Positions 1-64,000 of a stretch of 64,000 nucleotides of DNA are shown piece by piece. The stretch comes from a virus. Its lineage: Duplodnaviria; Heunggongvirae; Uroviricota; Caudoviricetes. Position 1 is the first letter of the stretch; the number at the start of each line of letters is the position of its first letter. A program made the position numbers and the translations under genes. The stretch is taken from positions 71,047 to 135,046 of IMG/VR virus record IMGVR_UViG_3300031555_005217. One strand, written 5' to 3'. A model generated the notes under the pieces. That model did no database searches, was not told the origin of the DNA, and worked only from the letters and a program-made list of their open reading frames with translations.

Positions 1-1508
1 ATTTGTCTAGCTTCTTTATATCCTTCAATTGTATTTAAAGAATTTTCGTTGAACACTTCAAATTCTAAGTTAGATTCTTCTAAATAGTCTTTTCTTACAA
101 CATCAGTTCTTGCACAAAATAATTTTCTTATTTCTTTATTATGAGAAGGAATTTGTTGCAGGTTAGGTTCGCTTGAACTAAATCTTCCTGTTGCAGCACC
201 ATATTGATTAAAGTTACAATGAATTCTACCGTCTGCTTCATTTACTTTTTCAGGTAAACTGTCAACAAATGATTCTACTAACTTAGCAAATCCTCTTCTT
301 TCTAACATTAATTTACAAATAGGTAAATTAATTTTAGATAATATTTCTTCTCCTGTTCCTCTAGGTTTCTTTTTATCTATAACTCCTACTTTTAATATAT
401 CATATAAAAGTATTGCTAATTGAGTTGGAGAACTTAAAGATATAGGATTTTCTAATTTTTCGTTTGGAGTTTTACCTTCTTTTCCTGCTTTAGTTATTTC
501 AGGTTTATTAGCTTCAGGAGTTAATCTCCAAGCATCTATTTGAGGTTGAATCTTTGAAATTTCAATATCTAACTTATCATCAATATCTTTTAATAATTTA
601 TGATATTTAACTTGTAATCTTTTAGCATATTCCTTATCTAACTCAATTCCAGCTAATTCCATTTCAGCTGTAGATATTACACAAGGCATTTCAATTTCTT
701 TAAATAATTTATAACAGTTTTTATATGAAGGTTGAGTTAAAATTTCAAGTTGCCACTCATATAATTTATAAGTCATCATAGAATCGGTTGCAGCATATAA
801 TGCAAATATTTCAGGATCTACAAAAGCATATTCAATATCTTTAAATAATTCATCTATTGAATATTTTTCTTGTTCTGGATCTATCTTACTAACATATTGT
901 TGTTTTAAACCTGCACTTAATTCATTTTCATCTATAATTTTAGATGCTATTAAAGTATCCCAATGAATTGGAAGTTCTAATCCTGTTGTACATTTAATTA
1001 CTTTATAGTCGAACTTTCCATTATGCATGATAATAAAAACATTATTATCAATTAATCTTTGGAATTCTTCTTTAACATCTTGTTCTGTTAATTGATCTGA
1101 AAGTCTTTCGCCAGTTTTATAGTCAACGTGATTAAGAGGGATATAAGCTTGTTTTTCACCTTTTGTATAGATACAAGGTCCCATTAATTTACACGTAATA
1201 GGATCTAAACTATTGTTAGTTTCTGTATCAATAGCAATATATCCATTTTCAATACACTTATCAATATATAAAGAAAATTGTTCTCTAGTTTTGATAACTA
1301 GAACATTTTCTTTCTGTTTACCTAAAACTAAGAGAACATTTTCATTGATAAGCTTAAGTTTATCTTCTATAGATAACTTTTTGCTCTTAACTTGTTTTTC
1401 AACTGTGACTTTTAGTTCTTTAGGTTTAGCTATTTTATTAATAACTTTTTTAGTTTTTTCTTTTTCTTTAGGAATAGAAAATTCTTCTCCTCATAAACTA
1501 TCCATCAT
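1..1508 (-). CDS. polA: DNA polymerase I family A with 3'-5' proofreading exonuclease domain; N-terminal part only, gene continues past window start
   Basis: Hand translation of minus strand from ATG at 1508 (SD ggagcg upstream) gives MMDSL-[TGA]-GEEF... Exo motifs IAIDTETN, HNGKFDYKV, YAATDSM are present, followed by the PolA motif RIHCNFNQYGAATGRFSSSEPNLQQIP. There is an in-frame TGA at codon 6, so the gene is not in the standard-code ORF track. Confidence 0.8.
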
Positions 1509-1529
1509 GTTGAATCGCTCCTTTAATTA

Positions 1530-2291
1530 CTAGAATCTGTAACGAGTTACTCCACTTGATTGTTGAGTAGGTTGTTGAATAGGTTGACTAGGTTGTTGAA
1601 CAGGTTGTGAAACTTGTTCTACCTTTTGAACTTGTTCTACTTCTACTTTAGTTTCAACTTGAGTTGTTTGAGCAACTTCATTTCCTTCTTCAGTATCACC
1701 ATTTAAAGCAGTTTCATATTGCTTTAAAGATTTAAATAAAATCTTAGAAGCATCAATACCTTCAAGCACTGAGAAATCAACTGGATATAAAGCATCTGGA
1801 TATACAGCTTTATTCATAATAATATTTGTAGAATATCTTGTAGCTGTACCTGAACCAGTTCTCTTAATTTTGAATAAATGTTGAGTTAAATCACCATATT
1901 CAGTAATTAATGTCTTAATATCAGTATCAGCAAACATTCCAGGACGGTCCCAAATAACTGCCTTTTGAACTACTTTTCCATTATCTGGAATATAAGCTAC
2001 TGCTGTAATTGCACATCTAATATCTCTCTTAATACCTTGAGAACATAAAGGACATGCATCATCTCCTGAACAACAAACTCTCTTACCGTATTTGTCATTA
2101 GGGAATACACCTACAACTAAATGTGTAGATTCGAATACTAAATCATCCATTGATTTGTAAGGAAATCTTACAACAACAGAATCTCCATCATTCTTAAGAT
2201 AAGTACCCATGAAATCGAATTCTTTTCTTTCTCCTGATGTTTGATTAGTACTTCTTTGTTGTGATCATTGATTGTAATTAAATTGTGCCAT
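1530..2291 (-). CDS. hypothetical protein with Cys cluster (CCSGDDACPLCSQG) and Q/P-rich C-terminus; possible nucleic-acid-binding protein
   Basis: ORF track 1530..2210 extended upstream to ATG 2291 through one in-frame TGA (MAQFNYNQ-[TGA]-SQQRS...). SD gaagagga precedes the start. Confidence 0.45.
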
Positions 2292-2396
2292 CTTTCTTTC
2301 CTCTTCTTTCTTTCATCTTAAATTACATCTTAAATATTTATAATATAAATAAATTTATATTACATTTAATAATACAATTTATTTTTATTATTTAAA

Positions 2397-3392
2397 TTAC
2401 TTGTTAGTTTTTAATTTATAATTAGAGATAAGTTTTTCTACTGAAATTCCTTTCCTCTCAAGTAAGTTTAAAAACTCATTCTTCTCTAAATCATTAATAT
2501 CTTTTCCTTTAGGAATATTAACAATATCAACTAAAACATCTTTTCTAATATTTCGTAAAAATTCTCTAATTCCTTTATTTCCTGCTTCATCTCCATCAAA
2601 ACATAAAATATAATGTCTTATAGGAGATTTATTAAGAATATTATATTGTTCTTTAGTTCCTGTTCCAAATAAAGCAACTGCAGGAATATTATAAGAATGA
2701 CAAGTTAAAGCATTTATTTGTGATTCACATATAACTGCTTGATTTAAATTATTTTCAGTTAAATAATTTAATAAATAAACAGGTTTAACTTTATCTTTAT
2801 CTATTATAAACCTTTTAGAATTAACGCTTCTTTGTGTTAACATAATAAGCTTTCCTTTTTCATCTCTTACAGGAAAAACTATACATTGATTTTTAGGATT
2901 ATATTTTACTTGAAATTTCTCAATTACTTCTTTACTTAATTTTCTTTCTATCATATAAGGGTGAAAATTTTCAAAAGTATTTAATATAGATTCATTTAAA
3001 TATTCTTTTTTATTTTTATCTAAAACTATTTCATCTAAATCTAATTGATACTCAACTACTCCATCCCAATAAGTTTCTAATAACCATTCTTTAGCTTCAC
3101 TATCTGAAATATCAAAACATTCAGCAACAAAATGATAAAAAGGACCTTGTTCTCCACAAGCAAAACATTTAAACCATCCATATTCAACCTTATCATTATT
3201 TGGGCCAATATAAATATCAGCGTCAGGATTATTTTCTAATCCATTATTGTGATGAGGACAAGTTACTCTTATATTATTTCCTAATAATTTAACTACTTTT
3301 AACTTACCATTAATTAATCTAAATTTTATATCTCTTATTATATTTATTAGAGGTTCATGAATTGTTTTATTATCTATTGTTAAATAAGGCAT
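2397..3392 (-). CDS. DNA primase (DnaG-like: N-terminal zinc finger plus TOPRIM)
   Basis: Zinc finger CPHHNNGLENNPDADIY and TOPRIM motifs ICESQINALT and CFDGDEAGNKG. Intact in standard code. Confidence 0.75.
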   Translation of the reverse strand: MPYLTIDNKTIHEPLINIIRDIKFRLINGKLKVVKLLGNNIRVTCPHHNNGLENNPDADIYIGPNNDKVEYGWFKCFACGEQGPFYHFVAECFDISDSEAKEWLLETYWDGVVEYQLDLDEIVLDKNKKEYLNESILNTFENFHPYMIERKLSKEVIEKFQVKYNPKNQCIVFPVRDEKGKLIMLTQRSVNSKRFIIDKDKVKPVYLLNYLTENNLNQAVICESQINALTCHSYNIPAVALFGTGTKEQYNILNKSPIRHYILCFDGDEAGNKGIREFLRNIRKDVLVDIVNIPKGKDINDLEKNEFLNLLERKGISVEKLISNYKLKTNK

Positions 3393-3394
3393 TA

Positions 3395-62794: not shown

Positions 62795-62940
62795 TCAAAT
62801 ATTCCTTCACACTAATATTCACAATCCCAGTTATGAAAGTGCACATACACCCTATAAATTATAGAATGTCATAAAAGGAATCGTGTAAAATAACAACCTT
62901 TAAAACCTTTTTTATTTTATTATCAAGATCCATAATTAAT

Positions 62941-63010
62941 TACGTGTGCTAACCGTTACACCACATGTCCTTCACAGGACTATGCTGGATTCGAACCAGA
63001 CCTCGGCACC
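62941..63010 (-). other. tRNA-like fragment cluster (T-arm-like CTGG-TTCGAAT-CCAG, GNRA hairpin GTCCTGTGAAGGAC, D-arm-like GTGT-AACGGTTA-GCAC) in non-canonical order
   Basis: The 18-nt gtgtaacggttagcacac is identical to the D-arm region of the tRNA(UCA) at 30111-30206. Confidence 0.35.
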
Positions 63011-63034
63011 GACCATTGCAAATTAGAATTTTCA

Positions 63035-63640
63035 TTTATTGCTGTAAGGACCTTTTTATTTATTTTATATGTATCTTAACTAGGTTCTGTTTTTAATAGG
63101 TTTTTGTTGTTAAAATTATATTCATGTATTTTATCTTCTTAATTGTCTTTCTATAATTGCTGTATGAACCTAAATACATTTATTTAATTTATTTAAAAAT
63201 TGATTTACTAGACACCTTATTTATCTCTATCAAATACCCAAAATTTGTGAATTATAAATTATAATATTAATTTGCTGTATGTGTCTACATCAATATATTT
63301 TATATTATGTTAACAAGATACCTTCCATTACCGATATGGAACATATCAAAATAGATATGATTGGAGTTGAACCAACATTTGTTTATCTTTGCTGTATGTA
63401 CCTTTATAATATATATATATATATATTAATTTAGTTAATTAATTTTGAAATTTACTAACCACGTTTTTGCCAAGATTGATTAAAAGTCAATTGCAGTTTA
63501 GATTGCTGTATGTGATTATATCTCTTTTTTGAATAATATATTTGTATTGAAAGTAAAATTGATATTATTTTTACTAACCTCAATTTACCTATTATTTGCG
63601 ATTTTGGAGATTGCGAATATACGTATTGGATTGCTGTATG
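63035..63640. repeat. array of 6 short direct repeats (core TTGCTGTATG) spaced about 108-122 bp apart; iteron-like
   Basis: Copies at about 63041, 63149, 63268, 63390, 63509 and 63628. No ORF in the region. Confidence 0.6.
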
Positions 63641-63699
63641 AGATTATAATATATACCAATTTTACTTTTATTTACTTTATAACCAAGAAGGCTTATTTG

Positions 63700-64000
63700 T
63701 TAATTTAGCTCTACTTGTATTTTTCTTTACATTATTATATACAATTTTAATTTCAGGAATTTTATTGTATCTATCAGAATTTAATTCTTTTATTAATGCT
63801 TCATAAGGATCAGTTTCACCATTGATTACCATTTTGACAACATTTACTGAGAAACCACTTACAAGTAATACACCATTCTTATTGTACTTACATGGAATAG
63901 TTGTAGTTCTTGAACATACATTCCAGAATACTAATTTTGGTAATTCATAACCTGCACTAGCAAATTTTTCAGCTGCTGCTTCAATTACATTACCTGTATC
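63700..64000 (-). CDS. hypothetical protein, C-terminal part (gene continues past window end)
   Basis: Open minus-strand frame running to the window edge. Confidence 0.25.

Follow-up and report, generated by a model that had tools for sequence, protein, structure and literature searches.

Sequence evidence for TGA as a tryptophan codon in part of the genes of a large uncultured tailed phage, and for a phage tRNA(UCA) with a second, CCA-bearing arm

The 64,000 nucleotides at positions 71,047 to 135,046 of IMG/VR virus record IMGVR_UViG_3300031555_005217, the whole of which is referred to below as the window, come from a large tailed phage that is uncultured and whose host is probably of the Bacillota type, and it is the use of TGA as a tryptophan codon in part of its genes, together with a transfer RNA that would read this codon (tRNA(UCA)), that is considered here. 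The window has a G+C content of 26% and a GC skew that is strongly negative throughout, and its minus strand carries almost all of the open reading frames (ORFs). These include the replication genes for a DNA polymerase I fragment, a DnaG-type primase, a DnaB helicase and a DnaC/DnaA-ATPase-like protein, alongside two calcineurin-like phosphoesterases, a NADAR protein, an ATP-dependent DNA ligase, a radical-SAM protein, a ThyX-like protein, an SPFH protein, an RNA ligase, RtcB, a dCMP deaminase, a NUDIX protein, and HNH and GIY-YIG homing endonucleases, while a protein of 1233 residues matches tail and tail-fibre PHROGs. Neither release factor 1 nor a tryptophanyl-tRNA synthetase (TrpRS) is among the annotated genes of these 64 kb, and the rest of the genome may hold code-change genes.

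No nucleotide-level match was found when 24 kb of the window were compared by megablast with 50,697 GenBank phage records. The best matches of the DnaB helicase are to Clostridium, Streptococcus and Bacillus phages (30-35% identity) and Shine-Dalgarno motifs stand ahead of 49 of 77 genes, which together indicate a host of the Bacillota type. The DNA is present at 99.9-100% identity in three independent public assemblies, so that its TGA codons are not an assembly artefact. A GIY-YIG gene 98% identical to that of the window lies on a contig of 191,569 bp, and the whole genome is probably larger than 190 kb.

Under the standard code (table 11) a greedy ORF caller assigns 74.8% of the window to coding sequence, a figure that rises to 86.4% when TGA is taken as sense, with about 21 fragmented genes being rejoined. 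This gain is well above the 5-10% increase in coding density used in the literature as a criterion for recoding (PMC10879173). Taking TAG as sense in a control run gives 76.6%, a gain of only 1.8 percentage points; taking TAA as sense gives 84.7%, but with 41 spurious plus-strand ORFs, whereas the TGA-sense reading keeps the one-strand layout. The first-pass annotation had claimed that TGA is a sense codon and that standard-code calling breaks the genes, and the comparison of table 4 with table 11, which lengthens ORFs as well as raising density, bears this out. Each of the genes it had named is a single frame in which TGA is the only interruption. Public gene calls on the identical contigs likewise give the NUDIX gene, a 477-residue gene and the GIY-YIG gene at full length, with TGA read through. 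Gene starts are set here at the first ATG, and a handful of the short ORFs called within the tRNA array are unlikely to be real genes.

The stop codons agree with this reading. All 93 minus-strand ORFs called with TGA as sense terminate in TAA (70) or TAG (23), as had been stated for the genes at large, and TGA is never needed as a terminator in the window; the lone TGA that stands near a C-terminus, at codon 272 of 278 in the GIY-YIG gene, falls on a tryptophan column. Within the frames of the table-4 ORFs there are 59 TGA and 168 TGG codons, with no TAA and no TAG, which leaves TGG the majority tryptophan codon, again as annotated. The share of TGA among TGA plus TGG comes to 24-26% (51/212 in the curated gene set, 59/227 in the full ORF set), against an A-ending share of 79-93% for the other A/G pairs (Lys, Glu, Gln, Leu, Arg) of the same genes. 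TGA is thus strongly under-used relative to mutation bias.

The amino acid that TGA specifies was sought in alignments in which the codon was entered as X, avoiding bias. When the GIY-YIG gene, which has five TGA codons and no TGG, is aligned with 120 homologues, four of its TGA columns hold tryptophan in 111, 68, 45 and 65 of them and are the only columns of the alignment with at least 30% tryptophan; the fifth lies in a variable Lys/Arg column. Over the five columns the non-gap residues are Trp in 55.5%, Cys in 0.9% and Gly in 0.2%, with Ser absent. The tryptophan at codon 71 has also long been known as a conserved residue of the GIY-YIG family. Three of the four TGAs of the NUDIX gene align with Trp in every homologue covering them, in an alignment for which only four homologues were returned. 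The alignment of the HNH endonuclease is blurred by NUMOD repeats and gives weak Trp signals at four of six TGAs, while the PDB matches obtained for the ThyX-like and phosphatase proteins are too distant for their TGAs to be placed. Internal repeats provide comparisons of their own, with IPWNK next to IP-TGA-NK in one gene and YCDDCW next to YCDDC-TGA in another. The tryptophan motifs cited in the first-pass annotation were recovered in this form (PWNK beside PXNK, and YCDDCW beside YCDDCX and YCPDCX, where X is TGA), with the exception of its "IWNRE" wording for the lambda-type phosphatase, in place of which codon 198 (YDAN-TGA-RNY) was found to align with TGG in four of five relatives. The homologue alignments of the TGA-containing proteins support Trp, as that annotation had suggested, and no other amino acid.

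Database homologues may themselves include code-4 translations, which would make part of the protein-level evidence circular; exchanges between TGA and TGG at the codon level are unaffected. In 33 aligned cells against IMG/VR relatives of 25-61% identity, TGA of the window stands opposite TGG eight times, TGA four times and Tyr codons seven times, and the reverse exchange, with TGA of a relative at TGG of the window, occurs three times. Codon 7 of the DnaC-like gene and codon 154 of the phosphatase are TGA in the closest relative too, so that recoding in this lineage must be old. To the extent that sequence analysis can settle it, TGA is established here as a codon for tryptophan.

TGA use is partitioned into gene blocks. 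Genes differ in it more than expected by chance (permutation test, p < 5e-5), and its share of the tryptophan codons in the four blocks beyond 8.66 kb listed below is 0/62, 21/47, 0/35 and 20/33 in map order:

1-8.66 kb: TGA in 3 of 8 genes; 6 TGA, 24 TGG
8.66-22.3 kb: TGA in 0 of 26 genes; 0 TGA, 62 TGG
30.3-43.7 kb: TGA in 10 of 14 genes; 21 TGA, 26 TGG
43.7-54.65 kb: TGA in 0 of 26 genes; 0 TGA, 35 TGG
54.65-64 kb: TGA in 7 of 9 genes; 20 TGA, 13 TGG

The genes and blocks behind these counts, in map order, are as follows:

3-1508, minus strand: DNA polymerase I fragment, running off the window edge; TGA at codon 6, with an AAGGAG Shine-Dalgarno motif 8 nt before the ATG
1530-2291, minus strand: 253-residue ORF; TGA at codon 9; the real start could be Met codon 28, further downstream
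2397-3392, minus strand: primase; no TGA
3395-4642, minus strand: DnaB helicase; no TGA
4686-5360, minus strand: DnaC/DnaA-ATPase-like gene; two TGAs, that at codon 7 also in the relative L001
7802-8656, minus strand: metallophosphatase; three TGAs, codon 198 opposite TGG in four of five relatives and codon 154 opposite TGA or TGG in two of five
8659-22298, minus strand: TGA-free block of 26 genes, including the ATP-dependent DNA ligase and the radical-SAM protein; 62 TGG, 0 TGA
11348-12736, minus strand: ATP-dependent DNA ligase; no TGA
26397-27284, minus strand: nuclease-like gene of 295 residues within the tRNA array; four TGAs and no TGG, two of the TGAs opposite TGG in a relative
30964-31500, minus strand: ThyX-like gene (Pfam Thy1); three TGAs
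32519-33457, minus strand: RNA ligase; one TGA, opposite Tyr codons in three relatives
34066-35244, minus strand: HNH/NUMOD homing-endonuclease-like gene; six TGAs and one TGG, with the repeat IPWNK / IP(TGA)NK
35285-35578 and 35624-35866, minus strand: two small genes; one TGA each
36359-43597, minus strand: tail-fibre module; TGA in five of six genes of at least 80 residues
36359-40060, minus strand: tail-fibre-like protein of 1233 residues; four TGAs
40065-40574, 40686-41252, 41461-42096 (glucosyltransferase-like) and 42644-43597, minus strand: its neighbours in the module; one or two TGAs each
42096-42611, minus strand: the only gene of the module with no TGA
43906-54618, minus strand: TGA-free block of 26 genes, including RtcB, dCMP deaminase and a phosphatase; 35 TGG, 0 TGA
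45110-46408, minus strand: RtcB; no TGA
54698-56388, minus strand: two genes, function unassigned; three and two TGAs
56539-57375, minus strand: GIY-YIG/NUMOD3 homing endonuclease; five TGAs, no TGG
58530-59963, minus strand: zinc-ribbon repeat protein of 477 residues; four TGAs, in YCDDC(TGA) and YCPDC(TGA) beside YCDDCW
within 61112-62722, minus strand: 317-residue gene; one TGA
62087-62722, minus strand: NUDIX gene; four TGAs

The genes given in the first-pass annotation are all present, two of them with corrected ends: its NUDIX gene at 62107-62722 extends over 62087-62722 including the stop, and its GIY-YIG gene at 56539-57374 ends at 57375. Its statement that the primase, helicase, ligase and RtcB genes carry no TGA holds for all four. 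At the other extreme, TGA is used almost exclusively for tryptophan in the HNH/NUMOD gene (6/7), the GIY-YIG gene (5/5) and the nuclease-like gene of the tRNA array (4/4). The last of these has a paralogue at 24285-25157 on the minus strand, also within the array, which contains neither TGA nor TGG; both proteins have a C-terminal DUF7487-type domain. A search for related loci with the zinc-ribbon protein gave no match.

The window has 26 tRNA genes altogether, of which ARAGORN found 23 and Rfam three more:

22364-28498, minus strand: tRNA array, to which the tRNA(UCA) further upstream is added
25062-25132, minus strand: tRNA-Gly(UCC), Rfam only, with an odd T loop; overlaps the first-ATG start of ORF 24285-25157
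26294-26367, minus strand: Asn(GUU)-like tRNA, Rfam only, acceptor stem unpaired, possibly a pseudo-tRNA; adjoins the nuclease gene
27363-27434, minus strand: tRNA-Glu(UUC), Rfam only
30111-30206, minus strand: tRNA(UCA), 96 nt, with the anticodon UCA that reads UGA; furthest upstream in the array

The suppressor tRNA(UCA), which the first-pass annotation does not mention, is the sole tryptophan-type tRNA found in the window, since neither ARAGORN nor Rfam detected a separate tRNA-Trp(CCA) among the 26. Its acceptor stem is AGGGGCU...AGCCCCU-G-CCA, giving A1-U72, a G73 discriminator and an encoded CCA end, and its anticodon loop is C-U-UCA-A-A. Acceptor stem and discriminator are those of bacterial tRNA-Trp, with E. 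coli and B. subtilis as the comparison, and the traits shared with bacterial tRNA-Trp are G73, a stem of the A1-U72/G2-C71 type and a 7-nt loop with U33 and A37. The label "SeC" that ARAGORN attaches to the gene arises solely from the anticodon. The tRNA model of Rfam matches it with 58.9 bits and an insertion of 22 nt, and its minimum-free-energy fold is a five-helix cloverleaf. In place of the 4-5 nt of a class I tRNA, the variable region has 25 nt and forms a 5-bp hairpin with a 7-nt loop, ACGGU-CUCCAAA-GCCGU, whose loop is identical to that of the anticodon arm in tRNA-Trp(CCA). The gene can be read as two tandem copies of a unit made up of anticodon arm and 4-nt variable loop, in which unit 1 is CCAGU CUUCAAA ACUGG GGUA and unit 2 is ACGGU CUCCAAA GCCGU GGGU. 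Removal of either 21-22-nt unit leaves a class I tRNA of 74-75 nt that is colinear with tRNA-Trp(CCA), and in related phages the neighbouring genuine tRNA-Trp(CCA) genes score best, among ordinary tRNAs, against a model of the two-arm family described below. This tRNA is the obvious candidate reader of UGA, and from the tryptophan found at TGA positions we infer that it is charged with tryptophan. Mass spectrometry showed Trp at UGA for all 13 phage tRNA(UCA) assayed in E. coli extract (PMC12636597), and tRNA(UCA) genes are detectable in 35% of TGA-recoded phage genomes (10.1101/2021.08.26.457843).

Directly downstream of this gene, about 1.2 kb on the minus strand (28810-30000) contain no ORF of at least 60 residues in either code, and G+C there is 31-42% in most 100-nt windows against 26% window-wide. 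The stretch has no Rfam match at E <= 1 and none in the GenBank phages or among the loci retrieved, and it may encode a structured RNA of large size.

Comparable tRNAs were found in other phages. A search pattern with both loops matched 19 IMG/VR contigs (13-177 kb), each match being a tRNA(UCA) of 94-97 nt in a phage tRNA array, usually adjoining an ordinary tRNA-Trp(CCA). An unbiased pattern, whose sole requirements were the UCA loop, a long variable region and a T loop, recovered 107 loci (L007-L113 from IMG/VR; further members of the family come from the bacterial genome records L117, L125, L132, L133, L135, L137 and L146). ARAGORN extractions from the 107 loci, with that of the window, provide 73 distinct tRNA(UCA) sequences. 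Nineteen of the 73 are typical tRNA-Sec, with a GGAAG/GGGAG-type 5' end, an arm of 6-9 bp and a small loop without CCA. In the other 54 the acceptor and D arms are very diverse and the hairpin loop is N-U-C-C-A-A-N in all, as GUCCAAA, CUCCAAA, UUCCAAC, GUCCAUA or 9-nt versions, so that the family has at least 54 distinct members; gene finders give them the label "SeC". Among the 49 of these with a 7-nt loop, the four stem pairs beside the closing pair are 94-100% canonical with four to five pair types each, and in an alignment of 16 sequences the five-helix structure is 99.3% paired, with a covariation score reached by none of 500 shuffles. The sequence UCCAA occurs in the arm of 66 of 87 tRNA(UCA) against none of 61 class II tRNAs (Leu, Ser, Tyr) of the same loci. 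The geometry differs as well: two-arm tRNAs have 7-nt loops with a 5' linker of mostly 4-5 nt and a 3' linker of mostly 3-4 nt, as against loops of 3-5 nt and linkers of 1-2 nt in the Leu, Ser, Tyr and also Sec arms of the same loci. The outer junctions are canonical: a single nucleotide separates the D stem from the 5' side of the UCA arm, and a 4-nt variable loop follows the CCA arm on its 3' side. Either arm could therefore stack under the D arm. Ordinary-length tRNA(UCA) with the same anchors were found at only 51 loci, which form a mixed set.

The variable-arm loop of tRNA-Sec likewise contains UCCAAA in a few bacterial lineages of high G+C (Caulobacterales, Bryobacterales), so the motif is not diagnostic by itself; what speaks for a family is that nearly all of the diverse Trp-like tRNA(UCA) have it and that the other long-arm tRNAs at these loci lack it. 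The gain in coding density with TGA as sense has a median of 0.095 at two-arm loci against 0.040 at Sec-like loci, a comparison too noisy to be relied on, since the loci of both kinds are short and tRNA-rich and gains in the TAG-sense control are large. An exact search with tRNA fragments gave no match. We found no description of the CCA hairpin in the literature searched, a search that was itself incomplete and so is no proof that the feature is unpublished. Tentatively, and as a possibility that we hold at somewhat below even, the suppressor of the window may be a member of a widespread phage tRNA family with two anticodon arms in which the CCA arm serves as an identity element for TrpRS.

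The two-arm form also occurs on bacterial records, namely a chromosomal scaffold of Bacteroides neonati MS4 and contigs assigned by binning to Bacilli, Clostridiales, Treponema, Bacteroides and Eggerthellaceae-related genomes. That of B. neonati (L125; NZ_HG726020.1, a scaffold of 1.48 Mb, locus 2948-3043) is in a cultured, standard-code isolate, and since the tRNA is identical to one on the IMG/VR viral contig L103 it presumably lies on a prophage. Identical two-arm tRNA(UCA) genes are found in two metagenome-assembled genomes (MAGs), of Phoenicibacter sp. (L117, JAZUHG010000038.1) and of a member of the Coriobacteriia (L133, JAUNQF010000023.1), on short contigs with 38-39% G+C whose coding density rises from 0.74 to 0.93 and from 0.71 to 0.86 with TGA as sense. 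JAUNQF01 is the genus Tapirivita, described in a 2026 paper as using UGA as a stop and standing next to code-4 lineages.

Several of the loci have further features. The array with the two-arm tRNA(UCA) often includes a transfer-messenger RNA (tmRNA) gene (L010, L013, L014, L015, L022, L023), with tag peptides such as ANKVKSLFSFNRVSFA; in the window no tmRNA was detected by ARAGORN or Rfam. A different long-arm tRNA(UCA), with the acceptor GCCCCAG...CUGGGGC, a U discriminator and arm loops AUCCA or AACCA, is found at L042, L071 and L109, and of these L042 and L071 have the largest density gains with TGA as sense (0.41 to 0.90 and 0.46 to 0.89). At L019 (138-214) and L021 (3898-3974), tRNAs with the anticodon CUA, labelled "Pyl" by ARAGORN, stand in arrays with a two-arm tRNA(UCA), thereby placing candidate suppressors of UGA and of UAG in one array.

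The window very probably belongs to a phage that uses genetic code 4 (UGA as Trp) in part of its genes while its host uses the standard code. We infer this host code, and with it the presence of release factor 2 (RF2), from the avoidance of TGA in two blocks, the phage's own tRNA(UCA), and the relatives. The closest relative (L001) is recoded, its coding density rising from 63% to 87% with TGA as sense; the more distant L003-L005 are not recoded and read well in the standard code. The same features, with the uneven and minority use of TGA, lend indirect support to the earlier view that this is a phage whose host uses the standard code, as opposed to a genome of the Mollicutes type. On this model the TGA-free blocks would be translatable on arrival in a host with RF2. 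The phage tRNA(UCA) would then accumulate, be charged with tryptophan by the host TrpRS and out-compete RF2 at UGA, whereupon the TGA-containing genes, that is the tail-fibre module, the homing endonucleases, several genes of nucleotide metabolism and some of replication, would be made at full length. Borges et al. (10.1101/2021.08.26.457843) have put forward this model of recoding for code-4 phages. Host TrpRS reads the CCA anticodon, which a tRNA with UCA would lack. A tandem duplication of the anticodon arm and variable loop could have relieved this, one arm reading UGA and the second keeping N-U-CCA-A-A as the TrpRS anticodon identity element otherwise missing in a UCA tRNA. The CCA arm might act in place or through an alternative fold that brings it into the anticodon position; either way a standard-code cell could charge a UGA-reading tRNA with Trp efficiently and no phage synthetase would be needed.

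Several observations sit less easily with this model. polA, the DnaC-like gene, one phosphoesterase, ThyX and the RNA ligase all carry TGA, so recoding is not confined to late genes and the idea that TGA delays late genes fits only loosely; a division into recoded late genes and clean replication genes is only partly true, in that the tail-fibre module is recoded and two 26-gene blocks are clean. At the nucleotide that follows (+4), TGA does not differ from TGG or from the background (p = 0.21 and 0.65), and TGA codons are spread uniformly along genes (p = 0.51), which leaves no additional mark of competition with RF2. Code-4 bacteria, moreover, live in mammalian guts, among them Mycoplasmatales and some Eggerthellaceae (PMC13462651), which bears on the unlikely alternative that the host is itself a code-4 member of one of these groups, TGA being an ordinary Trp codon and tRNA(UCA) one of a general set. 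A 41.7-kb contig binned as "Bacilli bacterium" (L146) holds the closest relative of the window tRNA(UCA), tRNAs of this kind are also present on the short contigs binned in Eggerthellaceae-related MAGs (L117, L133), and the G+C content of 26% is Mollicutes-like. Short phage-like contigs binned into MAGs are, however, weak evidence of a host. A cell with no RF2 would give the phage no reason to avoid TGA, yet TGA makes up 26% of Trp codons where comparable pairs are 79-93% A-ending, and none of the 97 Trp codons over the 52 genes of the two blocks is TGA in a genome of 26% G+C; the more distant relatives are also normal in the standard code.

It is far less probable still that TGA encodes another residue, whether glycine (code 25, as in Absconditabacteria/Gracilibacteria and phages), serine, cysteine or selenocysteine. 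The last is suggested by the "SeC" label, serine by the long extra arm and G73, which are identity features for seryl-tRNA synthetase, and by the serylation that long-arm G73 tRNAs with stop anticodons can undergo (PMC5389517), and glycine by the existence of code-25 phages (10.1101/2021.08.26.457843). The composition of the GIY-YIG columns across the 120 homologues speaks against all of these, and the TGAs of the NUDIX, phosphatase and nuclease genes align with Trp or TGG; glycine, at 0.2% of those columns, is rejected, as serine and cysteine are on the alignments. The cloverleaf of the tRNA has a 7/5 acceptor/T-arm geometry as against 8/5 in tRNA-Sec, the gene is cleanly separated from the Sec-like tRNA(UCA) that came up in the same search, and the 7-nt loop and linkers of about 4 nt in its extra arm are unlike the Ser, Leu, Tyr and Sec variable arms of the same loci. 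With 51-59 TGAs over 21 genes aligned with Trp, selenocysteine is likewise rejected, SECIS elements (selenocysteine insertion sequences) and selB not having been searched for. Least probable of all is that the TGAs are real stops in pseudogenes, split genes or genes with occasional read-through, the long ORFs being due to chance. Dropping any stop does lengthen ORFs in AT-rich DNA, as the 84.7% obtained with TAA illustrates, but that reading creates the 41 spurious plus-strand ORFs and the TAG control gains only the 1.8 percentage points given above. Homology runs on across the TGAs with conserved Trp, TGA positions are kept or swapped with TGG in relatives of 34-61% identity, and the sequence is identical in three assemblies; the alignments refute the pseudogene and chance-ORF reading.

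Recoding of TGA to Trp in low-G+C gut and rumen phages is already established, and as public gene calls on the identical contigs already treat TGA as sense, the recoding adds one lineage to a known phenomenon. Its practical weight lies in annotation: table 11 truncates or loses about a quarter of the genes of this phage, including the tail fibre, the determinant of host range, and all homing endonucleases. Block-wise avoidance of TGA further provides a concrete map of the genes that would be translatable before a code switch. The two-arm tRNA(UCA) is the part likely to surprise a specialist, as it offers a testable answer to a question left open by the field, namely how a host TrpRS that reads CCA charges a tRNA that reads UGA. 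If the CCA hairpin is indeed the handle, it would represent a new principle of tRNA identity and a ready-made design for engineered opal suppressors; it would also explain charging in code-4 phages and perhaps why suppressor tRNAs go undetected in most TGA-recoded phage genomes.

Ivanova and coworkers reportedly gave an earlier account of TGA-recoded (code 4) phages in 2014. The closest parallels are the TGA-recoded phages of the Agate and Jade clades (10.1101/2021.08.26.457843), which are likewise large, low in G+C and uncultured, with TGA aligned to Trp, no TGA terminators, a preference for TAA, an encoded tRNA(UCA), recoded codons in structural genes and none in other blocks, and close relatives that differ in code. 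Unlike the Agate example, in which replication genes are clean, polA and the DnaC-like gene of the window carry TGA, and as there is no DNA match to the 50,697 GenBank phages the likeness is one of features and not a clade placement. Code-4 phages with suppressor tRNAs infect standard-code Firmicutes and Bacteroidetes (10.1101/2021.08.26.457843). The crAss-like and Lak phages, in which reassignment of TAG to Gln (code 15) has been validated by metaproteomics (PMC9523058), resemble the present case in that a phage suppressor tRNA would reassign a stop in part of the genome within a standard-code host; they differ in the codon, the amino acid and the host phylum, theirs being Bacteroidota, without Shine-Dalgarno motifs.

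With the code 4 of Mycoplasma and Spiroplasma the window shares UGA as Trp through a tRNA with the anticodon UCA and a G+C content of about 26%. In those organisms TGA is the dominant and uniformly used tryptophan codon, unlike the window, where it accounts for 24-26% of Trp codons and is missing from whole blocks. Their tRNA-Trp(UCA) is, to our knowledge, an ordinary tRNA of 75 nt with no extra CCA hairpin. In having an extra helix between the anticodon and T arms, G73 and a "SeC" label, the tRNA(UCA) of the window instead recalls class II tRNAs, allo-tRNAs and tRNA-Sec (PMC5389517). It is set apart from all three by the 7-nt loop N-U-C-C-A-A-N of its second arm, the linkers of about 4 nt on each side and the 7/5 geometry.

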